IMG/VR virus record: IMGVR_UViG_2778261009_000005 | Location: 1 to 43,253 of that record | From: a virus | Taxonomy: Duplodnaviria; Heunggongvirae; Uroviricota; Caudoviricetes | Direction: 5' to 3' (one strand) | Length of the DNA: 43,253 bases | Shown here: in pieces, positions 1-21,277 of the stretch | How the letters are laid out: each line of letters starts with the position of its first letter | How positions within the stretch are numbered: the stretch's first letter is position 1 | Program-made: the position numbers and the translations under genes | The notes under the pieces: generated by a model | Database searches by the model: none | What the model was told of the DNA's origin: nothing | Seen by the model: the letters and a program-made list of their open reading frames with translations, nothing else

Positions 1-64
1 AGTACCAGCGTACGGCCCACAGAATGATGTCACGCTGAAAATGCCGGCCTTTGAATGGGTTCAT
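1..64 (-). CDS. tnp26: IS26 transposase Tnp26, N-terminal part (partial)
   Basis: Minus-strand translation from ATG at 62-64 gives MNPFKGRHFQRDIILWAVRWY, the IS26 transposase N-terminus; runs off the window. Confidence 0.8.
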   Translation of the reverse strand, partial: MNPFKGRHFQRDIILWAVRWY

Positions 65-127
65 GTGCAGCTCCATCAGCAAAAGGGGATGATAAGTTTA
101 TCACCACCGACTATTTGCAACAGTGCC
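1..127 (-). mobile_element. IS26 left end (partial, continues beyond window start)
   Basis: Reverse complement of 1-127 reads as the IS26 end: 14-bp terminal IR GGCACTGTTGCAAA at 114-127 and the start of the transposase ORF. Confidence 0.85.
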
Positions 128-349
128 GGAAGGAATATGATTCATATCGGTGAGGAAGGTGCCCAGAAAACGGACACATCCAATTTGCAGGGCAATGCCC
201 AGACGGTTGTGATCACCTCTGCTTTTTCCGATAAATTCCTTGTCTGCTTCATCAAGGTGAAAATATCGTGCCAGCTGAAGCTCATCCGGTTCACCGGTGA
301 ATCTGCCATAGCTTTCAGTCTGCTCAGTGGTCAGAAAGTCAACGGGCAT
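128..349 (-). pseudogene. tnpA: tnpA 5' remnant (Tn3-family transposase, first ~74 codons) interrupted by IS26
   Basis: Minus-strand ORF starting at 347-349 encodes [32 protein letters not shown]...; homology stops at the IS26 IR (127/128). Confidence 0.8.
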
Positions 350-1070
<721 letters not shown>

Positions 1071-1182
1071 TACGCCTATTTTTATAGGTTAATGTCATGA
1101 TAATAATGGTTTCTTAGACGTCAGGTGGCACTTTTCGGGGAAATGTGCGCGGAACCCCTATTTGTTTATTTTTCTAAATACA

Positions 1183-1211
1183 TTCAAATATGTATCCGCT
1201 CATGAGACAAT
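1183..1211 (+). promoter_or_regulatory. blaTEM promoter (P3-like: -35 TTCAAA, -10 GACAAT)
   Basis: TTCAAATATGTATCCGCTCATGAGACAAT about 40 bp upstream of the bla start. Confidence 0.5.
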
Positions 1212-1240
1212 AACCCTGGTAAATGCTTCAATAATATTGA

Positions 1241-2113
<873 letters not shown>

Positions 2114-2222
2114 CTGTCAGACCAAGTTTACTCATATATACTTTAGATTGATTTAAAACTTCATTTTTAATTTAAAAGGATCTAGGTGAAGATCCTTTTT
2201 GATAATCTCATGACCAAAATCC

Positions 2223-2260
2223 CTTAACGTGAGTTTTAGTTCCACTGAGCGTCAGACCCC
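2223..2260. repeat. Tn3-family 38-bp terminal inverted repeat (IRR)
   Basis: CTTAACGTGAGTTTTAGTTCCACTGAGCGTCAGACCCC, one mismatch to the Tn3 IR as remembered. Confidence 0.85.
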
Positions 2261-2467
2261 TTTTACCGCGCTTTTCCGCGTTTTGCTGGCTGGTGGGCGC
2301 TCTTTCTGTTTAGCGATACGGCGGTCGATAGAATCCCGCATTTTCTGATATTGCGATTCTCGCCAAGCGGGGTCAGCCAACTTTTCCCGTTGCCGAGCGA
2401 TCGCTCGTTCTCTGGCTGCCTTCTGCCACTCGCGGCGCTGTTCAAGTTTTTGTTCGATTGTTTTCAT
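2252..2467 (-). pseudogene. ref: ref-like gene (P1 Ref, RecA-dependent nuclease), N-terminal ~69 codons; 3' part displaced by the transposon
   Basis: Highly basic N-terminus MKTIEQKLEQRREWQKAARERAIARQREK... (about 21 K/R in 70 aa); the reading frame runs into the Tn IR at 2260 and the last codons are transposon-derived; lies downstream of cre. Confidence 0.45.
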
Positions 2468-6138: not shown

Positions 6139-7623
6139 TTATTCATTAAGCCATGCCAGAGCTTCATCAACCTGCGCTTCGTCTTCGACGCTAAGCACTT
6201 CATCTTGGGGAACATAGTTCGCCAACATAGCGAAACAATATGTATCCCAATGGTCCGGTGAGTGCAGGTTGAGTTTTTTCTTCATATCTTCCTTTGACAT
6301 CACCTTCCATTGACCTGCGGAATTTATCCCTACCGGTATCTTTGATGCTTCCTCTATAGTCGCAGCCCCCTTATCAAGCCGCATACGCCCTGATTTTACA
6401 GCTTCTGCCGCCTGAATATTCGCGAAAGCGCGCATATCGAAATAAAGGCTTTTATCTTCACGGCTGTGCATCTTTTTACCCCAGCGGATACGCTGGACGG
6501 TAATGCCATAGCGTTCGTACATTAGATCAGCCGTCGATTTCCCCAAGCCATCGCCATCAATAGCTATGGTTATGTTCGGGAACCGTTCTGGGTTACATTC
6601 TGCGAAAATCTTGGCGGCTAACTGCGTTTCTGTAACGTCTGTGTATTCCAGCATACGATAGTTGATTACACGGCGTTTATTTCGCTGGCCGGACACCATC
6701 ATGATATTAATAACGGACTTATCTCGTCCTGTGCCACCAGCAACGTCAACACATGCAACCCAGCCCCATCCTTTGGCAATCTTGACCTTTCGCCGCGTCG
6801 CCCGCTCAACCTCATCACGACCAAGAAGAAAGCCATCTTGAGATTTGGGAAATTCACCACGTACTTTGATCATGTACATGGGGTTATCACGACCGCCATA
6901 CTCCGCAAGTTTTGCTCGTATAAATTTTGCATCTACAAGCGGAGATTCTTCACTATTCAGTATTATCGCAGTAAACAATCCATCAGGATTTCCCGGGCGA
7001 ATAGCTAGTCTGTGGTGTGAATCGTAGAAATAGCCTGAAGGTCGCGTAGGCTGGGAAAGAAGCAGAATACGGTTATCCTTACCGGTCAGCGCACCTGTTA
7101 TCACACTGAATGCTTTATCACTCACACCCGACGCTTCGTCGATGATATACAAGAGATGATCGGCGTGTTCACCAGCCAACGCCTCCTCATTTCCGGGGCG
7201 ACAGGACTTTATCAATATTGTCCAAACACCCTTGCCAGTCACCTCAAAAAAAGACGTTTCTGTAAGAATGAAATACTTCGACAACCACGGGAATCTGCTA
7301 ACAGCAGTAGCCCAATTGCTCTTTATGTATTTGAAAATACCATCAAGGACTTGCTGTCTTTTGTTAGCGACCAGAATGACGCGAGCGCCGGGGAAAAACA
7401 TGATGAAGAGTATTGCAATGATACTCGTCATATCCGATTTACCAGTACCATGGCCGGAGGTCACACTTGTCCAACTGCCGTCCTGCTGCGTGGACTCAAT
7501 GATCTCATCCTGCTGCCAGGTTGGTGTCTTCCCAAACAACACATCAGCGGCCGCAATCCAGTCATAACGATATAGCGCCACAAGCTCGCGCCAACGTGGG
7601 TCCGTTACGCAACTTCTGGCCAT
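6139..7623 (-). CDS. pacB: PacB, pacase/terminase large subunit
   Basis: 494-aa ORF immediately downstream of pacA; P1 gene order. Confidence 0.9.
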
Positions 7624-8816
7624 TAATCATCATCCCCGTACAGTTTGCGGGTAACTTCTTCGTCTTCCTCCTCGTCTTCGTCCAGATCCTGTTCAAGCCA
7701 TGCTTCGTTTGATATGCCTTCCGCATCGACATCACCATAACCACCTGTATCGACGATATCGGCAATTTCTTCTCTACGATGCTCAATCCACAATGCCGCA
7801 TCAGCGCGGCGGCTGGCGGCCCGTTCTCGCGCGATTTTATCCAGATCTTCAAGTGATGGAGCGCCAGATGCTGTTTGGTTTTCCTCATCATCGGTATTGG
7901 TCTTAGGAGCACGCAGATCGGCTTTGATTTGCTCCAGCATCAGGGGCGGCACTTTTCCTCCATGCGCCTCGATGAATTCAGCCGCTTCCAGCACTGACCA
8001 GTTATTTTCACGCTTTCGTTCGTATGCCAGCTTAACAATGCCAGCTTGCCCCATAGACAAAGCGTGCTTTTCCGCCTCCCGGCTTTCTTTTCGATAGTTA
8101 TTCCGGATGCTGTAAATGGTGTTGATCAGGCTGCTTATCTGCGCGGAACAGCTGTTTAGCATGCTCGCGATACGGTATTCAGGCGGAGTACCTTCATCAT
8201 CGTCTTTTTGCTGATCGCGCATTTCCTGCACCAGGCGAATACACGTATCCCTGGCGTTCTCCAGCATAAGGAGATGAGAAAGAGACTTTTCCAGAAGAGT
8301 GGTTTCCAGAACATCGGCCCCGGACCGACGCAACATAGCGCGCGCGGCCTTCCGCGCTTCAACGTTATCTATCAGGTAATCGCCAGCTTCGAATTCAAAG
8401 CGTTCACCATCATCATCCAGGGTGTCGCGTTCCAGGCGATCACGTAAGGTCCGGTGGGCGCGGGTGATCACGTCATGATCATCTGAACGATCATTTATGC
8501 GCTTATTTTGGCGCTTCGCATTATCGACTGCGGCACTGACAACGGCATTAACTCTTTGTTTTTCATCCATTTCAGCCACAACGTGATCACCTGCACGTTG
8601 ATCATTAGCGTGATCAATGATCATGCTTTTTAGTGGTTTCCTGACAGGCTTATTTGGCTTACGGCTGTCCGCTGTTCCGGTGTCTTCTTTGAATGCACGG
8701 AGATAACGACGTGCGGTGTTTGGGTTGAGATTAAACTCGGCGGCATATTGTGCGATGGTGTAACCACCATCTCGCGCCAGGCGAGCAAAATTCTTCTTGT
8801 GATCGTCCCAGGTCAC
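7623..8816 (-). CDS. pacA: PacA, pacase/terminase small subunit
   Basis: 397-aa ORF (GTG start with AAAGGAAG ribosome-binding site) containing the pac site; acidic C-terminus. Confidence 0.9.
8461..8625. other. pac packaging site (seven GATC-containing hexamers in clusters of 3 and 4)
   Basis: TGATCA/TGATCG-type elements at about 8467, 8478, 8490 and 8586, 8601, 8613, 8620 inside pacA, as described for the P1 pac site. Confidence 0.75.
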
Positions 8817-8902
8817 TTATGCTTCCTTTCGTATAAAACTCTTTTTGACGCGAGGGTAACGAAAGTCACATGTCAAAAGGCCCGGAACGGGCAAGCAATC
8901 AA

Positions 8903-9355
8903 TCAGATACGTGCGGATGTGGCATTACCGTAATGACGGTGCTGACGGACCACCTTATTGAAAAATTGACGCGCCATTACCCAAGGCTGGTGCTCCCGGC
9001 GTTCCTTTTCGTCCTGCGTCATATAGAGTTCGTTCTGGAGTTTTTCATCAAACCGGCGCGGAGCGCGACTGCGGCGAAAGAATTCAGGATTCAGAGAGTG
9101 GATCTGAAATCTACGTGGGCGTGTACTGTCATCAATCAAAACAGACGAATACTTAGACACAGCGATAGCCTTTAAGCGCAGATAAACATCGCGCTTATCG
9201 ACATCCAGATGCGGGTATTCCTTTTCAAGAATTGCTGCGAGTTCTTTCGCTGATAGAAGAGATTTAGTGCGGATCATGTAATCCGCAATCTCGTACGATG
9301 TTATTCGTGAGTGATTTATTTCCATGAAGTGGCGTCCCTGCCAGTTAAGTAACAT
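8903..9355 (-). CDS. lpa: Lpa, late promoter activator
   Basis: 150-aa ORF upstream of pacA with a C1 operator in its promoter region. Confidence 0.8.
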   Translation of the reverse strand: MLLNWQGRHFMEINHSRITSYEIADYMIRTKSLLSAKELAAILEKEYPHLDVDKRDVYLRLKAIAVSKYSSVLIDDSTRPRRFQIHSLNPEFFRRSRAPRRFDEKLQNELYMTQDEKERREHQPWVMARQFFNKVVRQHRHYGNATSARI

Positions 9356-9425
9356 CCTGTCACCTACTGATTAGCCCATGTCAACTAATCAACGTCGAAT
9401 ATAATACCCTCGATTAAAGAAATAG

Positions 9426-9442
9426 CAATACATTAGAGCAAT
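9426..9442 (-). promoter_or_regulatory. C1 operator-like site upstream of lpa
   Basis: Minus strand ATTGCTCTAATGTATTG, 14/17 match, between the pdcB stop and lpa start. Confidence 0.55.
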
Positions 9443-9443
9443 T

Positions 9444-10487
9444 TTATCTAACACTCGACGAATGACTTGTGATAGCGCCAACTCCAAGCGCGTAATCAAA
9501 GAACAATCGTTGATGCATCGCCAGCCTACCGTGCGTCTTCTCCCAATTATCGCGGTCACGCTCAATATCACGCTGGCATGACTGGCACAGAGGAATAGCA
9601 TAAATGTCATGCGCGCATAATCGACTATGACGAACTATATAAGGCGTAATGTGAGCGCCAGCTCCCGCAGCTCCACAGCCACAGCATGGACGGGAAGCCA
9701 CAAAGTCCATGTACTCGGGCAATTTTAGCGATTGAAGTTTTGGTATTTTGAAATGCGCCATACCTGGGTCGGAGTCAACATCCACAGGGCATACTTTTGC
9801 ACGCATCGGCGCGGCGCGTTCTTCCATCATCTGAACATATGCTGTAGCGCGATCGTCATACGGGCGAATATCCGCCTCTTTCAGAGGTCCGCTATCCTGC
9901 GGAATAGCCTTCATCTTATTTATTGATATGCGGCAGACTTCTTCCGGCATCAGGTGCATCATGTTGCGCATGAAAGCCCACCAGCACAGCTCCTGAATAC
10001 TTAAATCATGGCTATTTGAAAGGCCCATTTCCTGACGGGCGACATCCAGTATCCAGTTAACGCGATTATTGTGCAGCGTTTCTTTCAGCTCATTAAAACC
10101 ACGCATCCGATAATGGTGATCGTGATGCCAGCACAACAACACCGCGCTATTGTCTCGTTCAGCGTGGACAATATGGTTGTCACACCAACTACGATCTGCG
10201 GCCTGGCATTGCCCCTCTTTCCTGCGCAACCACGCCACCAGCGCGTCAATTCCACCAATACGGCGAAACAGTTCATCGCTGTTAAAAAACGGCTGCAACG
10301 CCTCATTTGTTGCCATGGTTTGCTCGGTAACAACGAGGCCGTCTTCCATGTGCTCGATTAACTCACGCGGCACCGGCTCCATAATAAATTTACGGCCAGC
10401 CTCCACCAGCTTTCTGACCTCCTGATCCACTTTGAACGTGGCGAGGCCAAGCTCTTTCTGTACAAAGGGAGTAATTACGGCTTTCAC
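9444..10487 (-). CDS. pdcB: PdcB-position protein with Cys-rich zinc-binding motifs
   Basis: 347-aa ORF between pdcA and lpa; [12 protein letters not shown] and CxxC motifs. Confidence 0.55.
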
Positions 10488-10514
10488 ATCACACCTTTAA
10501 TCACTGATTGGGCT

Positions 10515-10694
10515 TTATCTGCTGCCCGGCATTCTCTGTTTAAGCACAACCATTTCCTGACGGCATAACACAGCAATAGCAGTCCTGGCTCCAATTTGCT
10601 TACCAACCAGGTATTGCTTTACCTCGCGGCGACTCACGCCATCAAGAAGCATCTTTAACGCTTCACGGGACAATTTGTTGTATTTGCGTGCCAT
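10515..10694 (-). CDS. pdcA: PdcA-position small protein
   Basis: 59-aa ORF from ATG at 10692-10694, 4 nt after the doc stop. Confidence 0.45.
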   Translation of the reverse strand: MARKYNKLSREALKMLLDGVSRREVKQYLVGKQIGARTAIAVLCRQEMVVLKQRMPGSR

Positions 10695-10698
10695 TAAT

Positions 10699-11079
10699 CT
10701 ACTCCGCAGAACCATACAATCTACGTAACGTGTCGGCGACAGAAGATACAGATATCTCGCCAGTCGCAGCGCCTACAGTAAGGTCTGCCAGTTCAGGTGA
10801 ATCAAATACCTGCACCCCGTTACGGCGTAGAAATAGCAGCGCGCTGTTTAGCGCGGTACGCTTATTGGCATCATTGAATATATGCCCTCTCGCTGTAGCC
10901 ACCAGGTAGGTGGCGGAGACTTCGAAAAGGTCGGTGATCTCTTCGTAGGCAACTCTGGCCTGAACTCTCCCGATAATGGCCTCTGCCCTACCCGGATCTG
11001 ACATTCCCGGCAGGCCGCCGTAGCGGCTTATATTCGCATCATGAAGCGCAATAAGTTCTTCCGGTGATATATGCCTCAT
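10699..11079 (-). CDS. doc: Doc toxin (Fic-fold kinase) of the phd-doc addiction module
   Basis: 126-aa [28 protein letters not shown]...; start overlaps the phd stop. Confidence 0.93.
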
Positions 11080-11300
11080 TATCGGTTAACCAGTTCCTTG
11101 TTGGTGGAGTCCAGGGTGTCAAACAGGGATGCAAATTCAGCATCCAGCGCCGCTTTTTTGTAGGCTTCGAAAGTAGCCTTGCTGACAATTACTGCTGGCT
11201 CACGACCTCTGCGGGTGATTTCAACCTCTTCCCCGGCTTCAACATTGTTGAGCACTTCAGAAAGGTTGCCGCGCGCGGTACGGAAGTTAATGGATTGCAT
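11079..11300 (-). CDS. phd: Phd antitoxin
   Basis: 73-aa [76 protein letters not shown]. Confidence 0.93.
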
Positions 11301-11304
11301 AAAC

Positions 11305-11345
11305 ACCTCGTGTACTCGTTATGTGTACACAATTATAAACTTCAC
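11305..11345 (-). promoter_or_regulatory. phd-doc promoter/operator
   Basis: Minus strand TATAAT followed by palindromic GTGTACAC-type Phd-binding repeats directly upstream of the phd ATG. Confidence 0.6.
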
Positions 11346-11476
11346 AGGCATAAAGCACCAGCACTTTGCGGCTTAACAAACCTCTAGGCAGGTCATTCGT
11401 AGCCTAATGTCCGAACTGCTAAAGCATCCAAGTTGCTGTAGAATCACCGCCAATTACATAAGCCTGAAATAAGTGG

Positions 11477-13039
11477 ATGAAAATGACAAGTATTCAACAA
11501 CGTGCAGAGCTTCATCGTCAAATCTGGCAAATTGCTAACGATGTCAGGGGTTCGGTCGATGGATGGGATTTTAAGCAATACGTTCTGGGCGCACTTTTCT
11601 ACCGTTTTATCAGCGAAAATTTTTCCAGTTATATTGAAGCCGGTGATGACAGTATCTGTTATGCGAAACTGGATGACAGCGTAATTACTGATGACATTAA
11701 AGACGATGCCATCAAAACTAAAGGCTACTTCATCTACCCCAGTCAGCTTTTCTGCAACGTAGCTGCGAAAGCAAATACCAATGACAGACTGAACGCAGAT
11801 TTAAACAGCATCTTCGTTGCTATCGAAAGTTCTGCTTACGGCTACCCTTCAGAAGCAGACATCAAAGGTTTGTTTGCTGATTTCGATACCACCAGTAACC
11901 GCCTGGGTAACACCGTTAAAGATAAAAATGCCCGCCTGGCTGCGGTTCTGAAAGGGGTTGAAGGGTTAAAACTTGGTGACTTCAACGAACATCAGATTGA
12001 CCTGTTCGGTGATGCCTATGAGTTCCTGATTTCTAACTATGCGGCAAATGCCGGTAAGTCAGGCGGTGAGTTCTTTACACCGCAGCACGTCTCCAAGCTG
12101 ATTGCACAACTGGCTATGCACGGGCAGACCAACGTTAACAAAATCTACGACCCGGCAGCGGGTTCCGGCTCACTGTTGTTGCAGGCTAAAAAGCAGTTTG
12201 ATAACCATATCATCGAAGAAGGCTTTTTTGGTCAGGAAATCAACCATACAACCTATAACCTGGCACGTATGAACATGTTTTTGCACAACATCAACTACGA
12301 CAAGTTTGATATCAAGCTGGGTAATACACTGACTGAGCCACACTTCAGAGATGAAAAACCGTTTGATGCCATCGTTTCTAACCCGCCGTATTCGGTGAAA
12401 TGGATTGGCAGCGATGACCCGACGCTGATTAACGATGAACGTTTTGCCCCGGCTGGCGTCCTGGCCCCCAAATCCAAAGCTGACTTTGCGTTTGTACTAC
12501 ATGCGCTGAACTATCTTTCGGCCAAAGGTCGTGCTGCGATTGTCTGCTTCCCGGGTATTTTTTACCGTGGCGGCGCGGAGCAGAAAATCCGTCAGTATCT
12601 GGTCGATAATAACTATGTCGAAACCGTGATTTCACTGGCACCGAACCTGTTCTTTGGCACCACTATTGCTGTAAACATTCTGGTGCTGTCTAAACATAAA
12701 ACGGATACCAAAGTTCAGTTTATTGATGCCAGCGAACTGTTCAAAAAAGAAACCAACAACAATATCCTGACCGATGCCCATATCGAACAGATTATGCAGG
12801 TATTTGCCAGCAAGGAAGATGTTGCTCATCTGGCGAAATCTGTTGCGTTTGAGACTGTTGTCGCGAATGACTATAACCTGTCGGTGAGCAGCTATGTGGA
12901 AGCGAAAGATAACCGCGAAATTATCGATATCGGTGAGCTGAATGCAGAGCTGAAAACCACGGTCAGCAAAATCGACCAGTTGCGTAAAGATATTGATGCA
13001 ATTGTGGCTGAAATTGAAGGCTGCGAGGTGCAGAAATGA
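11477..13039 (+). CDS. hsdM: Type I restriction-modification methyltransferase subunit HsdM (N6-adenine)
   Basis: 520-aa [28 protein letters not shown]... with AdoMet motif and NPPY catalytic motif (VSNPPYS). Confidence 0.92.
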
Positions 13040-14241
13040 GCGAGATGAGTTATCTGGAAAAATTGCTGGATGGGGTTGAGGTTGAGTGGAAGACACTTGG
13101 GCAAACTTGCAAAATTGAAACAGGAAAGCTTAATGCGAATGCGGCTGTTGATGATGGAGAGTATATGTTCTTCACGACAGCCAAAGAGACAAGCAAAATT
13201 GATAAATTCCGCTGGGATACAGAGGCATTGCTGATTGCAGGCAATGCGAATGTTGGTGAGGTGAAGCATTACATCGGCAAGTTTGAGGCTTATCAGCGCA
13301 CCTATGTTCTGACAAATTTCGACGAAAATGTAAGTGTTAGATTTTTGTATTTTGTGCTTAGCCATAGCCTGAAGAAATATCTCGAGGAAAGAACAAATAG
13401 CGCGGCAATGACATATATCGTGCTATCAACCTTAGAGAATTTCCCTATCCCCATCCCCTGCCCGGATAATCCGGAAAAATCCCTTGCCATCCAGTCTGAA
13501 ATCGTTCGGATTCTGGATAAATTTACTGCACTTACCGCTGAGCTTACCGCTGAGCTTAACATGCGTAAAAAACAGTACAACTACTATCGCGACCAGTTGT
13601 TGAGTTTTAAAGATGGTGAGGTTGAGTGGAAGACTTTGGGGGAAATTGGAGATTTTACATATGGATATGCAGCCAAAGCCATGGATTCAGGAGATGCCCG
13701 TTTCGTGAGAATTACTGACATAAATAAAGACGGGAAGCTATCGAAAGAAAACCCAATGTACGTTGAATTAAATGAGGAAAATGAGAAATATACCTTAGAC
13801 AAAAATGATTTACTCATGGCAAGAACTGGGGCAACCTTTGGTAAAACAATGATTTTTGAAGAAGATTATCCAGCAGTATACGCTGGTTTTTTAATAAAGT
13901 TGAACCTAAATAAAACGATTATTAATGCCAAATATTACTGGCACTTTGCACAAAGTGATTTTTTTTGGGAACAGGCTAATAAATTAGTATCTGGTGGTGG
14001 GCAACCACAGTTTAATGCTAATGCACTGAAACAAGTCAGAGTACCTATTCCATACCCATCTCACCCTCAAAAATCTTTAGACGAACAGGGGCGTATTGTG
14101 GATATTCTGGATAAGTTTGATGCAATCACAGCTTCCATCACCGAAGGTCTCCCGCGTGAAATCGAGTTGCGCCAGAAACAATACGAGTACTATCGTGATT
14201 TACTGCTCAGTTTCCCAAAACCTGAAACTGTCAGTAATTAA
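13036..14241 (+). CDS. hsdS: Type I specificity subunit HsdS (Type IC, EcoR124-like)
   Basis: 401-aa ORF with two target-recognition domains each opening GEVEWKTLG, central TAELTAEL repeat and two conserved ILDKF...YYRD..LLSF regions; start overlaps the hsdM stop. Confidence 0.9.
13531..13557 (+). repeat. Tandem 12-bp repeat (ACCGCTGAGCTT x2, coding TAEL-TAEL) in hsdS central conserved region
   Basis: CTT-ACCGCTGAGCTT-ACCGCTGAGCTT-AAC read directly; the same repeat exists in EcoR124I/II hsdS, where copy number sets the recognition-site spacer length. Confidence 0.8.
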
Positions 14242-14362
14242 TTGACCATTATTACAGACCGGATCACCTTAACATCCGGTCTGTATATAGACTATTTTTT
14301 ACACGCCGGAAAGCACCCTTAACGCCCTTCCGGCCCTTGCCAGACGGCATAAAGGATGCGCT

Positions 14363-17300
14363 ATGACTCATCAGACACACACTATTGCTGAATCCAATAA
14401 CTTTATCGTCCTTGATAAGTACATCAACGCTGAGCCAACAGGCGACAGCTACCAGAGCGAATCGGACCTGGAACGTGAACTGATTCAGGACCTGCGGAAT
14501 CAGGGCTATGAATTTATATCCGTAAAATCTCAGTCGGCTATGCTGTCCAATGTTCGGGAACAGCTTCAGAGCCTCAATGGTGTGGTGTTTAATGACAGCG
14601 AGTGGCGGCGTTTCACGGAGCAGTATCTGGACAACCCGAGCGATGGCATTCTGGATAAGACCCGTAAAATCCATATCGACTATATTTGCGACTTTATTTT
14701 TGATGACGAGCGACTTGAGAACATCTATTTGATAGATAAAAAGAATCTCATGCGCAATAAGGTGCAGATTATCCAGCAGTTTGAACAGACGGGTTCTCAT
14801 GCTAACCGTTATGACGTCACGATCCTGGTTAATGGTTTACCGCTGGTGCAAATCGAACTAAAAAAACGCGGGGTGGCGATTCGTGAGGCTTTCAACCAGA
14901 TACATCGTTACAGTAAAGAGAGTTTTAACAGCGAAAATTCCCTGTTTAAGTATCTGCAACTGTTTGTCATTTCTAACGGCACCGATACCCGTTATTTTGC
15001 CAACACGACAAAGCGCGATAAAAACAGTTTTGACTTCACCATGAATTGGGCGAAATCAGACAACACGCTGATTAAAGACCTCAAAGACTTTACCGCTACC
15101 TTTTTCCAGAAACATACTCTGCTGAATGTTCTGGTGAACTACAGCGTTTTTGACAGTAGTCAGACGCTACTGGTGATGCGACCGTACCAGATTGCCGCCA
15201 CCGAGCGCATTCTGTGGAAAATTAAGAGTTCCTTTACAGCGAAGAACTGGTCAAAACCGGAAAGCGGTGGGTATATCTGGCACACTACCGGTTCTGGTAA
15301 AACCCTCACCAGCTTTAAAGCCGCGCGTCTGGCAACAGAGCTGGACTTTATTGATAAAGTCTTCTTTGTGGTCGACAGGAAAGACCTCGATTACCAGACC
15401 ATGAAGGAATATCAGCGTTTTTCGCCAGACAGCGTCAACGGCTCGGAAAATACCGCAGGCCTTAAACGAAATCTGGATAAGGACGATAACAAAATTATCG
15501 TCACTACTATTCAGAAACTTAATAACCTGATGAAAGCAGAAAGCGACCTGCCTGTATATAATCAGCAAGTGGTGTTTATATTTGATGAATGCCACCGCAG
15601 CCAGTTTGGAGAAGCGCAGAAAAACCTGAAGAAGAAATTCAAACGCTATTATCAGTTTGGTTTTACCGGCACACCTATTTTCCCGGAAAACGCCTTAGGC
15701 TCAGAAACGACCGCCAGCGTATTTGGTCGTGAATTGCATTCGTATGTAATTACCGATGCGATTCGTGATGAAAAAGTGCTCAAATTCAAGGTGGACTATA
15801 ACGATGTGCGGCCACAGTTTAAGTCTTTAGAGACAGAAACTGACGAGAAAAAACTAAGTGCGGCTGAAAATCAGCAGGCGTTTCTTCATCCCATGCGTAT
15901 ACAGGAAATTACGCAATATATTCTGAATAACTTCCGCCAGAAGACGCACCGTACTTTCCCTGGCGCAAAAGGTTTTAATGCTATGTTGGCAGTGAGCAGC
16001 GTGGATGCTGCAAAAGCCTATTACGCGGCGTTTAAACGGTTACAAGAGGAAGCCGCTAATAAATCTGCAACTTATAAACCGCTGCGTGTTGCGACAATCT
16101 TCTCCTTTGCCGCTAATGAAGAACAAAATGCCATTGGTGAAATTTCCGATGAAACTTTTGATACCAGCGCAATGGACAGCAGTGCTAAAGAGTTTCTTGA
16201 CGCTGCAATTCGTGAGTATAACAGCTATTTTAAAACTAACTTCAGCACCGACGGTAACGGTTTTCAGAACTACTATCGCGATTTAGCCCAACGGGTTAAA
16301 AATCAGGATATCGATCTGTTAATTGTCGTGGGGATGTTTTTAACTGGCTTCGATGCTCCAACATTGAACACGCTATTCGTCGATAAAAACCTGCGTTTTC
16401 ACGGCTTGATGCAGGCATTTTCCCGCACCAACCGTATTTATGATGCAACTAAAACCTTCGGTAATATCGTCACTTTCCGGGATCTGGAACGCTCAACTAT
16501 TGATGCCATAACGCTGTTTGGTGACAAAAACACCAAAAATGTGGTTTTAGAAAAGAGTTATGCAGAGTATATGGAAGGCTTTACTGATGCTGCCACTGGT
16601 GAAGCTAAGCGCGGCTTTATGGCAGTAGTTTCAGAACTGGAACAACGGTTCCCTGACCCTGCCAGTATTGAAAGTGAAAAAGAGAAGAAAGACTTCGTTA
16701 AACTGTTTGGTGAATACCTGCGTGCCGAGAACATCCTGCAAAACTATGATGAATTTGCCACGCTGAAAGCCCTGCAACAAATCGATCTTAGCGATCCTGT
16801 TGCGGTAGAAAAATTCAAAGCAGAACATTATGTGGATGATGAAAAGTTCGCTGAATTGCAAACGATTCGTCTCCCTGCTGAACGCAAGATTCAGGATTAT
16901 CGTTCTGCCTATAACGATATTCGTGACTGGCAGCGCCGCGAGAAAGAAGCTGATAAAAAAGAAAAATCAACCACTGACTGGGATGACGTGGTTTTTGAGG
17001 TCGATTTGCTGAAGTCTCAGGAAATAAACCTGGATTATATCCTTGGACTGATTTTCGAACACAACAGACAAAATAAAGGCAAGGGCGAAATGATCGAAGA
17101 GGTCAAACGCTTAATTCGTTCAAGCCTGGGGAACCGGGCGAAAGAGGGCCTGGTGGTCGATTTTATTCAGCAAACGAACCTGGATGATTTACCGGATAAA
17201 GCCAGCATCATTGACGCATTCTTTACGTTTGCTCAACGCGAACAGCAACGTGAAGCAGAAGCATTGATAAAAGAAGAAAATCTCAATGAAGATGCAGCAA

Positions 17301-17479
17301 AACGCTATATTCGCACGTCTTTAAAACGCGAATATGCCACCGAAAATGGCACAGAATTAAACGAAACATTACCAAAACTTAGTCCATTGAATCCGCAATA
17401 TAAAACGAAAAAACAGGCAGTTTTCCAGAAAATCGTCTCGTTTATTGAGAAGTTTAAAGGCGTAGGCGGAAAAATATAG
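14363..17479 (+). CDS. hsdR: Type I restriction endonuclease/translocase subunit HsdR
   Basis: 1038-aa ORF with helicase motifs TGSGKT and DECH and an N-terminal nuclease region; own ribosome-binding site AAAGGA. Confidence 0.92.
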
Positions 17480-17558
17480 CCCAATTCGTGTTTTTCTTGC
17501 GGGTTCTTAATTAAACCCGCAAGAGACCGTGGGGTTCCAAATGGCTAATATACTCCCC

Positions 17559-17645
17559 TTATCCATGAGCGACGATGCCGCCAAAAGTGATAGAGAACAA
17601 CCAGAAATAGATCGCGGCCATAATGATTTTGAATGCCGTGTTCAT
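17559..17645 (-). CDS. Candidate 28-aa hydrophobic peptide
   Basis: MNTAFKIIMAAIYFWLFSITFGGIVAHG with AGGAG 9 nt upstream of the ATG; below the ORF-track size cutoff; unverified. Confidence 0.3.
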   Translation of the reverse strand: MNTAFKIIMAAIYFWLFSITFGGIVAHG

Positions 17646-17673
17646 ATTTTCAGCTCCTGTGATTGATTGGATA

Positions 17674-17704
17674 CATGCCGCGCCTTGCGGCATGTTTTTA
17701 TTTT
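17674..17704 (+). terminator. Intrinsic terminator (plus strand) downstream of hsdR
   Basis: CATGCCGC-gcctt-GCGGCATG followed by TTTTTATTTT. Confidence 0.65.
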
Positions 17705-17727
17705 CACTTTCTCTGTTTTAAATATCA

Positions 17728-17744
17728 AGATTTATTAGAGCAAT
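17728..17744 (-). promoter_or_regulatory. C1 operator-like site
   Basis: Minus strand ATTGCTCTAATAAATCT, 16/17 match. Confidence 0.6.
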
Positions 17745-18250
17745 TATTGTTGATGAAGAAGCGTGTTTTCATACTCCATGACCATTAACGTAAGCACGCC
17801 GTGACGCCTGAAAACACGCGCCACTTCAATCTTATCTTCCAGCGCGAACGCAATTTTGCTTAGACCAATTTTCTTAAGGAGATCAATCTTTGCTGGACCG
17901 TCATTTCTGTCATCGGTGGCGGGACGCATAGATAGCAAAGGCTCTGCCCCGTTTGTTACGTACTTCCGCAGCCAGGCTCGTGTTTTATCCCTTGCGATCT
18001 CACAGCGCCCGGTTACAAACCAGACCGTGTAAACGTTAAATAACTGGCGCACCATATCAATAACTGGAGTGATGGGAGTATCGGTGTCACAGGCGAGATT
18101 AAACTCGTTCCAGTCCTTTGTTAATGCACCTTTACCTGGTGGCGGAAGCAAATGCAGTCTGTCTTCAGTTGCCTCTGATATTGTTCCATCAATATCAACT
18201 ATGACGATATACGGACGTTCCTGGTGTGCGTGTTTATTGAAAATACTCAA
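17744..18250 (-). CDS. HAD-superfamily phosphatase-like protein
   Basis: 168-aa ORF with DxDGT motif (IVIVDIDGTIS) typical of HAD/PNK-type phosphatases; TTG start with GAGGAGG ribosome-binding site. Confidence 0.5.
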   Translation of the reverse strand: MSIFNKHAHQERPYIVIVDIDGTISEATEDRLHLLPPPGKGALTKDWNEFNLACDTDTPITPVIDMVRQLFNVYTVWFVTGRCEIARDKTRAWLRKYVTNGAEPLLSMRPATDDRNDGPAKIDLLKKIGLSKIAFALEDKIEVARVFRRHGVLTLMVMEYENTLLHQQ

Positions 18251-18268
18251 ATGCCCTCCTCATTGGAC

Positions 18269-18303
18269 GAAAAAAATGCTGGTGGGCGCACTCCACCAGC
18301 ATT
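18269..18303 (-). terminator. Intrinsic terminator (minus strand) after the 420-aa gene
   Basis: 11-bp stem AATGCTGGTGG/CCACCAGCATT, followed on the minus strand by T6. Confidence 0.6.
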
Positions 18304-18322
18304 AAAAGTGACACTGTAACTG

Positions 18323-19585
18323 TCAGCGAACGTAAATAGTGCCGCCGTTCTCTTTTTCCCATGCATTGCTACGTGCATAGCAAACATCGAGAAGTCTTCT
18401 TGCCGCTGTTTCCTCTAAACCCAATTCGACAACCAACTGCTCATGACGGCGGGTAACCACATCAAACAGGGTATGCAGCCCTTTAGCTGCCAGATCATCA
18501 ATAAATTCCGGTTCGAACGGCAGCTCTGCATCTGCCAACATAACCTCTTGCGCCCACTCGACACGGCGGACCAGTTCCGGGCGGCGGCTTTCCATCTCTT
18601 TACAGATCAATTCATGGAAGAACTCTACCCAACCTTCCGGCTGGAACTCGCGGAAAATGGCCAGCGGCTGGAAGTTTGGCATCAACCATTCGTTGATTCG
18701 GATATCAATGGCATAGCCCATGTCGCAGCAGAACTGATAAGCAAAGTCCAGCTTAGAAACGATATAAGGACGCTCGTTATTGAACTCTTTAGGCGATGAG
18801 ATCCCATAAGCCAGGAGGCGCGGGAAGAAGGAGATTTGCCCTAACGTCGGATGAAGTTTGCTTGCAGGGAAACGGCGCTCAGTAATGCCATACATTTCCT
18901 TCTTGAGCGTCGCAAATTTGGCATTCTCATTAACCAGCGCGGTAACCTCTGCTTTTTTATTAGCAAATGCCACGCGCGCTTCGCTTGCATCTTTAATAGT
19001 TTTTTTGAGCTGTTGGTTAAGGTCGGCGACCTGCTTACGCAGTTCCTGTCGCTCGCTTTTAGCTTTGTTATAGCGTTTCTCAAGGTTAAAAGGATCAAGT
19101 TTCATGATCTCTTTATATTGAGATTTTAGCGTTGAAATCTGTGAGTTCCGCAGTTCAACCATCGCGGTCATTTCATTGAGTTTTGTTTCCAGCTCAATGC
19201 TTATACGTTCGGCATTATCAGCACGCTGGTTGGCGTCATGCGTCGCATCGTCGATCGCGTCCTGTTGCTGGCGTTTCAAATGTTCAATTTGCAGCTGAAG
19301 CTCTTCAATTTCTTTACCCTTCAGACCGAGATCCAACTGCATATTTTCAGCTGCATCTACCAGGGAGTTATGGCTATCAGCTTCTGCGTTATAAACATCA
19401 ATAAGCTGTGCGTGAAGCATCTCCGCTGACTGAACCGCATTATCAAAAAAACGTGCTGTGAGGTCATCACAACTAACGCGGCGTTGCGCGGCCCGGATGT
19501 TCTGGATAATGGCCGGGATACCGGCATTCAGGACATCAGGGATAGATACATTTTCGATTGATTGGTTTTGTGCTGAAGTGCTCAT
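18323..19585 (-). CDS. Hypothetical protein, coiled-coil N-terminal half plus C-terminal globular domain
   Basis: 420-aa ORF; heptad-rich region about residues 80-230; no nucleotide-binding motif recognised; start 1 nt after the stop of the upstream 72-aa ORF. Confidence 0.55.
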   Translation of the reverse strand: MSTSAQNQSIENVSIPDVLNAGIPAIIQNIRAAQRRVSCDDLTARFFDNAVQSAEMLHAQLIDVYNAEADSHNSLVDAAENMQLDLGLKGKEIEELQLQIEHLKRQQQDAIDDATHDANQRADNAERISIELETKLNEMTAMVELRNSQISTLKSQYKEIMKLDPFNLEKRYNKAKSERQELRKQVADLNQQLKKTIKDASEARVAFANKKAEVTALVNENAKFATLKKEMYGITERRFPASKLHPTLGQISFFPRLLAYGISSPKEFNNERPYIVSKLDFAYQFCCDMGYAIDIRINEWLMPNFQPLAIFREFQPEGWVEFFHELICKEMESRRPELVRRVEWAQEVMLADAELPFEPEFIDDLAAKGLHTLFDVVTRRHEQLVVELGLEETAARRLLDVCYARSNAWEKENGGTIYVR

Positions 19586-19586
19586 T

Positions 19587-19805
19587 TCAAAGTTCCGTAT
19601 TAGCTTGTGCTTCGGTCATTTTTCCTAAGTATGAAGGAGGAAGGACTACGCAATTTGTATCCAGTCCCTCACCTATGGCAGCCTGTAAAATTCTGGCTAA
19701 GGTGAGTCTCTTGTTGCGATACCTGGTGATGACATGCCTGATACCGCCGGTCGGCGTAACAAAGGCGATCAGCCAGTAGTGATATTTCCGTCGGAATGGC
19801 CACAT
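19587..19805 (-). CDS. Hypothetical small protein (72 aa), first gene of a C1-controlled operon
   Basis: AAGGTG ribosome-binding site 5 nt upstream; operator 14 bp upstream; stop adjacent to the start of the 420-aa gene. Confidence 0.4.
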   Translation of the reverse strand: MWPFRRKYHYWLIAFVTPTGGIRHVITRYRNKRLTLARILQAAIGEGLDTNCVVLPPSYLGKMTEAQANTEL

Positions 19806-19819
19806 AGTGCACCTTGTAG

Positions 19820-19836
19820 ATTGCTCTAATAAAAAA
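19820..19836 (+). promoter_or_regulatory. C1 operator-like site
   Basis: ATTGCTCTAATAAAAAA, 14/17 match. Confidence 0.55.
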
Positions 19837-19860
19837 CGTGATGAGTGTACATCACGTTTT
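19837..19860. terminator. Bidirectional hairpin terminator between two convergent C1 operator-like sites
   Basis: CGTGATG-agtgta-CATCACG flanked by an A-run and a T-run. Confidence 0.5.
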
Positions 19861-19868
19861 AAAAAAAT

Positions 19869-19885
19869 TGAATTATTAGAGCAAT
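19869..19885 (-). promoter_or_regulatory. C1 operator-like site
   Basis: Minus strand ATTGCTCTAATAATTCA, 14/17 match. Confidence 0.5.
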
Positions 19886-19886
19886 A

Positions 19887-20588
19887 TTATTCTGATTCTC
19901 GCTCAAAAAATGAGCTGATAAGGGGAAGCCAATCCTCTGACACTTCGCGAGGTCGCGGTTTGCCGTGGAAAAAGATTATTCGGCAGTCTTTTGGTAATGC
20001 CCCATTCCCCCTGGAGTAACGCGCGCTCGCATATTTTGAACCTGGTTCCACAACATCGGCCTTGTAACTTACAAACCATCCTGGATACAGATCCTGAAAT
20101 GCTGGTGTATCATCGCCCATAACCTTTCGTAAGAACCCCTGGTCACCCCAGCACTCAGTAGTGACACAACGAGAAATCCAACCTTCCGGATCTTGCCAGA
20201 ATGAACTCCAGATATGCGCTTTAACACTATTTGGTATCCACAGGGCACCGCTGCCACGATATTGTGGATGGTAAAAATCCCTAAGCATGGTGAAGCTGGT
20301 TGGTGGATGCTCTAGGATTGGGCGTATATCACCGGCAATAACCGTGTCCAAATCCAGATAGAACAGATCATCGGTTATATCCGGTCGGAACAACTCGATT
20401 TTCGCCCACCAGCCACGGCACTTTTGCCACTGGTTGATCAATGGGACAACTTTGACGCCAGGTACATGTAAACGCTTCAGGTCTGTCAGGCAAATAATTT
20501 CATAGCCTTTTGGCAGTTGATTAACCAGCCACTGCACATCGGAAGCGTTATAGTCACCACCAGAGCGAAAAACTAAAGCAATCTTCAT
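19887..20588 (-). CDS. Hypothetical protein, possible nucleotide-sugar transferase-like fold
   Basis: 233-aa ORF with a DLD motif; assignment weak. Confidence 0.45.
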
Positions 20589-21277
20589 GCTGCACCATCA
20601 CCTTTCACTTTCATCAATGTCAGGTTTCCGCAAAATACGGCACTAGTGTCGATATACTGCTGATTCCAGAATGTCTTCGGGCTTTTCACCGGAGTGTGAC
20701 CAAAGATAAAACGATCTGCGCCCGAAATTTCGCCACCAATATCATCCATCGAATCACTGATACGCTCGCGCGCCCAGACAACGTTGAAAAGCGGCACCTC
20801 CTTACCGAATTGGTATTCATTATCCGGATAGTCGGCATGGGCTATAACGATAGTTTCTTGCCCCGTGTTCAACTCAATGATATAGGGCAGACGCTTTACC
20901 AGCTCCACCAGCGCCCAGGCTAATATTTCCTGATCAGTGTCCAGCATGAAGAACCATTGTCCGCCATTCATTAGCCAGTTATTCACGTTGCCATCTGGAC
21001 TTAACGCATCAATCATCAGCCGCTCATGGTTCCCCATCACTGCCCTGAACCAGGGCATCTGCAATAGTTCCAGACATTCGACATTTTCAGTACCGCGATC
21101 GATAAGGTCGCCGACCAATATCAGTAAATCCTGCGCCGGGTCAAAATCCACACGATGGAGTTCGGACATCAGTCTGGTGTAGCAACCATGCAGATCACCA
21201 ACAACCCAGACATTCCTGTATTTGGTACCGTCGATACGGTGATAAATTGTGGGTGCCATCATGTATTCTTCAGCCAT
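20585..21277 (-). CDS. ppp: Ser/Thr protein phosphatase, lambda-PPase family (P1 Ppp-like)
   Basis: 230-aa ORF with metallophosphatase motifs GDLHG, GDLIDRG and GNHE. Confidence 0.85.

Follow-up and report, generated by a model that had tools for sequence, protein, structure and literature searches.

The window analysed here, a 43,253-nucleotide (nt) stretch recorded in IMG/VR as IMGVR_UViG_2778261009_000005, comprises 43 kb of a P1-like (IncY-type) phage-plasmid. Between its phd antitoxin gene and the phosphatase gene pap lie three uninterrupted open reading frames (ORFs) on one strand, in the order hsdM-hsdS-hsdR, which a preliminary description of the sequence had taken for an EcoR124-like Type IC restriction-modification (R-M) operon:

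11477-13039, plus strand: hsdM, 520 amino acids (aa), Type IC N6-adenine DNA methyltransferase subunit (TIGR00497, PF02384, PF12161)
13036-14241, plus strand: hsdS, 401 aa, specificity subunit with two PF01420 stretches (PADLOC Specificity_I)
14363-17479, plus strand: hsdR, 1038 aa, Type IC motor and endonuclease subunit (TIGR00348, PF04313, PF18766, PF22679, PF12008)

PADLOC calls on the Hsd proteins are MTase_I, Specificity_I and REase_I, and the sizes given in the preliminary description proved exact. The hsdS ATG and the hsdM stop codon share an ATGA overlap, while hsdR follows hsdS after a 121-bp spacer and, as had been noticed, has its own ribosome-binding site, a Shine-Dalgarno sequence (AAGGA) 7 nt 5' of its ATG. 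Minus-strand ORFs listed within this interval overlap the three strongly supported hsd genes.

Protein comparisons place the system firmly in the EcoR124 family. HsdR matches EcoR124I HsdR (PDB 2w00_A) from end to end, with 2281.6 bits over residues 1-1038 and 16 mismatches among the 968 aligned residues listed (~98% identity), and it contains the EcoR124_C domain PF12008 (243 bits) and matches the NCBIfam hsdR model TIGR00348 (767 bits). Its nuclease residues D151/E165/K167 (PD-(D/E)xK) and Q179xxxY183 (QxxxY) are all present, as are the motor motifs GSGKT at 310 and DECH at 408 (DEAD-box). HsdM differs from the EcoR124 M subunit (7bst_D) at three of 520 positions (1159 bits over 1-520, ~99% identity), matches the NCBIfam hsdM model TIGR00497 (648 bits) and features the motifs DPAAGSG at 225 and NPPY at 302; EcoKI (Type IA) HsdM scored 65 bits only in the same search. 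In HsdS, the N-terminal 18 residues and the central and C-terminal conserved regions are identical or nearly so to those of the EcoR124I S subunit (7bst_A), whereas both target-recognition domains (TRDs) are divergent. The TAEL repeat noted earlier is present as TAELTAEL at residues 167-174 of the central helix, giving two TAEL repeats. The preliminary description had allowed that the subunits might fall into another Type I family or that the genes might be frameshifted; the protein and hidden Markov model comparisons and the intact ORFs refute both. Type I families were first delimited by complementation, cross-reaction of antibodies and sequence. Since the M and R subunits are 98-99% identical to those of EcoR124I, subunit complementation with that system would be expected.

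The junctions of the hsd genes with P1 DNA were placed by BLAST and base-level alignment against P1 (NC_005856). P1 homology stops at 11376 and resumes at 17555, leaving a foreign module at 11377-17554 (6178 bp) that replaces P1 pmgT-pmgU-pmgV-upfMNO-hot-lxr-humD (3487 bp) exactly between Pphd and the pmgT start. The flanking features are as follows:

10699-11079: doc, in the left flank
11079-11300, minus strand: phd antitoxin gene (TIGR01552, PF02604), in the P1-homologous left flank
11332-11360, minus strand: Pphd promoter (-10 at 11332-11337, -35 at 11355-11360), transferred from P1 annotation 87986-88014
17559-17645, minus strand: hydrophobic 28-aa ORF MNTAFKIIMAAIYFWLFSITFGGIVAHG, preceded by a strong AGGAG Shine-Dalgarno sequence; first feature with P1 homology on the right side of the module
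17744-18250, minus strand: pap, the P1 phosphatase gene (PF25109), in the right flank

The left flank (7299-11376) is 98.6% and the right flank (17555-21750) 98.4% identical to P1. The G+C content is 0.478 and 0.484 for the flanks and 0.437 for the module. Pphd is kept intact, with P1 homology ending 16 bp past its -35 hexamer, so the module starts at 11377 and not at 11346, the start proposed earlier, which falls inside this promoter. On the other side, the stop codon of the 28-aa ORF is 4 bp from the right junction. This ORF is kept in P1, just upstream of pmgT, where it is unannotated in NC_005856; all three nucleotide differences (3/3) are synonymous, and the equivalent match is annotated as 'membrane protein' in SJ46 and as a hypothetical protein in JL22. 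The module has no flanking direct or inverted repeats of at least 30 nt, so there is no sign that a transposon or an integrase brought it in. P1-like genes make up the remainder of the window (cre, c1, pacAB, lpa, pdcB, doc/phd, pap, pmgS, dmt, repA and parAB). The module thus does lie in a P1-like backbone, between phd and pap, and at a site distinct from the P1 res/mod locus, as the preliminary description had supposed.

The novelty implied there did not hold, because this site has long been known as the canonical location of Type IC hsd loci. The phd-hsdM (left) junction occurs in 719 PLSDB plasmids, including 308 conjugative and 218 mobilizable records, and the hsdR-P1 (right) junction in 538, while 571 PLSDB plasmids span at least 80% of a 6.45-kb query. 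In two isolated P1-like phages, too, hsd genes sit between phd and pap/pmgS. NCBI already contained the exact HsdS (UniParc UPI000BB7BFF9, for example EFB4110630.1), HsdM and HsdR sequences, on 51 to 84 public contigs (51 for HsdS and 84 for HsdR, whose 90% cluster has 12681 members). The present hsdS allele was found in 49 of 5426 complete Escherichia coli genomes, and some Type IC hsdS DNA in 1303. Tyndall et al. (1997), cited in PMC12707154 and PMC519025, reportedly described enterobacterial Type IC hsd loci flanked by P1 DNA. According to the P1 record itself (NC_005856), the DNA upstream of the EcoDXXI hsd locus is 98% identical to P1 87969-88647 (phd/doc), and P1 84263-84482 (the pap-pmgT side) shares 96-98% identity with the DNA that follows both the EcoDXXI hsd locus and R124/3 hsdR. 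The replaced block, pmgT-humD, corresponds to region 8, one of the eight regions that vary strongly among 54 P1-like phage-plasmids (PMC9603915), and all of its genes tested in a CRISPR interference (CRISPRi) screen of P1 were non-essential, upfM being untested (PMC10695390). R-M systems are also prominent among the genes exchanged between phage-plasmids and plasmids (PMC10879196). The phd-hsd-pap arrangement is thus already known and common, real but ordinary.

On this evidence, we give a probability of about 0.9 to the reading that 11377-17554 is an intact Type IC (EcoR124-family) R-M system of a P1-like (IncY-type) phage-plasmid, located in the standard variable region that separates phd from pap. 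Judged from its sequence, it is a standard and probably active Type IC system.

As in EcoR124I, two HsdM subunits would combine with one HsdS into a methyltransferase (M2S) that methylates one adenine on each strand of a bipartite, asymmetric target, which the two HsdS TRDs would determine. Addition of HsdR would give R2M2S, which on meeting an unmodified target would translocate DNA in an ATP-driven manner and cut at a distance. Because such a complex cuts unmodified DNA, it would protect the lysogen, and hence the plasmid prophage, from incoming phages and plasmids that lack the modification. Through the ATGA overlap, hsdM and hsdS would be translationally coupled; hsdR, beyond the 121-bp spacer, has a separate ribosome-binding site and probably a separate promoter.

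The length of the target spacer can be predicted from a repeat within hsdS:

13531-13558, plus strand: 12-bp tandem repeat CTTACCGCTGAG, 2.3 copies, encoding TAELTAEL, which sets the spacer length in Type IC HsdS

An HsdS with two TAEL repeats has the N6 spacer of EcoR124I, and one with three has N7 (PMC3874165); with two repeats in the present HsdS, the adenine-to-adenine distance should therefore equal that of EcoR124I (an N6-type spacer). In contrast, as both TRDs are unlike those of EcoR124I, the recognition sequence should not be GAAN6RTCG. TRD1 had no informative match among solved or named relatives, from which no target prediction was obtained. The C-terminal TRD, which occupies HsdS residues 206-352 (window 13651-14091), is closer to the N-terminal than to the C-terminal TRD of EcoR124I; that N-terminal TRD was its sole match among solved or named relatives, and a weak one (28.9 bits). 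It also aligns better with the EcoKI-type HsdS profile NF007278 (profile positions 27-169, E 1e-13, well under the cut-off) than with the EcoR124I C-terminal TRD. Neither match allows a specificity to be assigned. The source names of HsdS homologues were all generic ('restriction endonuclease subunit S') and offered no clue to specificity. The C-terminal TRD is common to 117 of the 119 closest HsdS relatives examined at ≥85% identity (98-100% among the matches listed), and the relatives sharing it carry many different N-terminal TRDs (18-48% identity), the kind of module shuffling that is usual among Type I specificity subunits.

Several non-coding features bear on how the hsd genes may be transcribed:

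11377-11476, plus strand: 100-bp region upstream of hsdM, the left end of the non-P1 module and presumed site of the hsdM/hsdS promoter
14253-14285, plus strand: hairpin in the hsdS-hsdR intergenic region, 12-bp stem, dG -18.8 kcal/mol, z -6.3
17493-17526, plus strand: hairpin 14 nt after the hsdR stop codon, dG -21 kcal/mol, z -3.9
17673-17704, plus strand: intrinsic-terminator-like hairpin and T run (hairpin 17673-17695, 10 pairs, dG -17.5, z -5.1)

The region upstream of hsdM is fully conserved (100%) in many plasmids. The hairpin between hsdS and hsdR, which had been placed at 14255-14283, is real, as none of 200 shuffled sequences folded as well (0/200); it has no directly adjoining T run and was not called by the terminator scan. 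A weak promoter-like match overlaps it, with TTAACA at 14269, an 18-nt spacer and TATTTT ending at 14298 (9/12 positions). Type IC systems are described as having two promoters. The term 'operon' used in the preliminary description is loose, as hsdR stands apart behind an intergenic region and is probably transcribed from a promoter of its own. The hairpin just past hsdR, which was missing from that description, occupies the right edge of the foreign module, where on the plus strand a T run precedes it and an A run follows; on neither strand is it followed by a T run, and it is not a canonical terminator. The terminator reported some way beyond hsdR does exist, but is not part of the module. 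It sits in P1-homologous DNA (from 17555), is near-identical in P1, and is therefore a native P1 feature that was not imported with the hsd genes; the hsdR transcript probably borrows it as its end. An Rfam search identified no RNA family in or near the hsd module.

Four explanations compete with, or qualify, the reading of the module as an intact, probably active defence system. The first holds that it serves mainly in plasmid maintenance and competition, as a selfish element beside phd-doc with little anti-phage role. The module does adjoin the phd-doc addiction module and moves with it into conjugative plasmids (the 308 conjugative and 218 mobilizable records above), and R-M systems that move between phage-plasmids and plasmids can do so selfishly (PMC10879196). 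Set against this, EcoR124 restricts strongly, with unmodified lambda forming plaques about four orders of magnitude less efficiently (PMC10149784), and Type IC systems spare a new host by assembly control, through a cleavage-incompetent R1M2S intermediate and not through ClpXP, such that EcoR124I can enter new hosts harmlessly (PMC12707154). A mainly selfish role is thus unlikely, although a stabilising role and defence are compatible and not mutually exclusive. Type I systems in general are also subject to restriction alleviation and inefficient in post-segregational killing, which again speaks against that role.

A second explanation accepts that the genes are intact but has the system silent or restricted to methylation, for example with hsdR poorly expressed or crippled by one of its substitutions, leaving an orphan-like methyltransferase. 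The points that weigh against our preferred reading converge here. The consensus promoter scan called no site upstream of hsdM, and its eight sites, against a mean of 12.8 in shuffled sequence, support no specific hsdM or hsdR promoter, with no convincing sigma-70 promoter called upstream of either gene; we therefore infer hsd expression from conservation alone. HsdR departs from EcoR124I HsdR at no fewer than 16 positions, and some of these changes may affect its activity. In addition, the hsdM and hsdR genes of phage vB_EcoM-673R5 (ON470615.2, 2683-8634) are annotated in pieces (two M pieces, HsdR2 and HsdR1), reflecting either decay of the system there or sequencing errors, and inactive copies may therefore circulate. 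However, every nuclease and motor motif of the HsdR encoded in the window is intact, its exact sequence on 84 contigs and the 12681 members of its 90% cluster fit a maintained protein, and the intergenic regions are kept across hundreds of plasmids. A silent system is accordingly quite improbable.

The remaining two explanations are refuted. A recent one-off acquisition of cargo by this element would suit the slightly lower G+C content of the module and the lack of hsd genes at this site in canonical P1 and P7, but it is made extremely improbable by the distribution of the locus: identical junctions in 719 (left) and 538 (right) plasmids, hsd genes between the same P1 genes in two isolated phages, and flank homology already noted in the P1 annotation and, reportedly, by Tyndall et al. 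in 1997. Membership of another Type I family (IA, IB, ID or IE) has next to nothing in its favour, its sole hint being the sub-cut-off match of the C-terminal TRD to NF007278, since HsdM and HsdR are near-identical to those of EcoR124I, EcoKI HsdM reached only 65 bits, and TRD similarity across Type I families is a known phenomenon (PMC3874165).

To the right of the intact Type IC system lies a retained P1 promoter region:

17700-17744, minus strand: C1 operator OpmgT/Op88 (17728-17744) and predicted PpmgT promoters, transferred from P1 annotation 84293-84337

In P1 itself, C1-repressed PpmgT with its operator Op88 drives pmgT-pmgU-pmgV. Here, Op88 and the predicted PpmgT are kept although these three genes are gone, and now face the 3' end of hsdR, with the 28-aa ORF sitting between PpmgT and the module junction. 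The promoter scan returned a promoter-like match at 17728-17700, and no convincing minus-strand terminator was found downstream of PpmgT before 16863. If PpmgT fired on prophage induction, transcription through the 28-aa ORF and antisense into the 3' part of hsdR could lower HsdR synthesis during lytic growth. This idea derives solely from the geometry of the retained predicted promoter and is very doubtful; if true, it would couple restriction activity to the phage lysis-lysogeny switch.

Elsewhere in the window, the following features were identified:

101-508, minus strand: N-terminal fragment of tnpA, in a Tn3-family segment
477-1070: tnpR resolvase, in the same segment
1253-2113: TEM-family beta-lactamase (blaTEM, 668 bits), in the same segment
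31027-31099, 33117-33189 and 33195-33266, minus strand: three tRNA genes (Rfam), as expected for a P1-like genome
33939-35957, minus strand: fused methyltransferase, 672 aa, with a Dcm-like N-terminal and a Dam-family C-terminal part, like P1 Dmt

The 672-aa Dmt-like protein is a predicted second DNA-modification function on the element. In comparison with plasmid pBS74R-D_2 (NZ_CP063334.1), the Tn3-family segment (window 1-2262) replaces P1-like sequence up to a point inside ref. The site of the P1 EcoP1I res/mod genes falls to the left of the window, which opens inside this insertion, and the closest plasmid that covers the left end of the window, pECY44-3, is rearranged by IS26. In pBS74R-D_2, two small genes alone lie between darB and mat (9052-10418), with no res/mod, and near these loci no classical R-M system other than the Type IC one is apparent.

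The analysis confirms a standard Type IC system on a phage-plasmid and adds very little that is new. Such a system can influence the entry of phages and plasmids into the host and can thereby affect the spread of the blaTEM-bearing element itself. The practical value left lies in the recognition sequence of the present HsdS allele.

Among known relatives, P1 and P7 have identical flanks at variable region 8 up to the base-level junctions, and hsd genes are not present there. The hsd-bearing P1-like phages match 87% of the 6.45-kb query at ~97% identity, their locus differing in part, including hsdS; P1-like plasmids and phages with hsd genes include MF510496.1, vB_EcoM-673R5 and phi456. Closer still are hsd-bearing IncY plasmids such as pBS74R-D_2, which share the phd-hsdMSR-pap arrangement and are 99.4% identical across all 6.45 kb; pBS74R-D_2 matches the window at 99.2% over 28.9 kb. 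At the locus, ~0.6% of bases differ between the window and its best plasmid matches, and the window additionally has the Tn3-family blaTEM segment in ref.

EcoDXXI and EcoprrI belong to the same Type IC family as the present system, and the EcoDXXI locus has the same P1 flanks on its phd/doc and pap sides, according to the P1 record. Both have three TAEL repeats and N7 spacers (PMC3874165), as opposed to two repeats in the present HsdS, and the EcoprrI operon contains a prrC insertion, whereas the ORF list for the present locus includes no such gene. The closest named counterparts are EcoR124I and EcoR124II of plasmids R124 and R124/3, the Type IC prototype, which share the hsdM-hsdS-hsdR order, with HsdM ~99% and HsdR ~98% identical. 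EcoR124I also has the same HsdS conserved regions and two TAEL repeats, and the DNA 3' of hsdR in the EcoR124 loci is the same P1-derived DNA as in the window. The differences lie in the two HsdS TRDs, which in EcoR124I recognise GAAN6RTCG, and in the replicon, which is a conjugative plasmid for EcoR124 and a P1-like phage-plasmid here.

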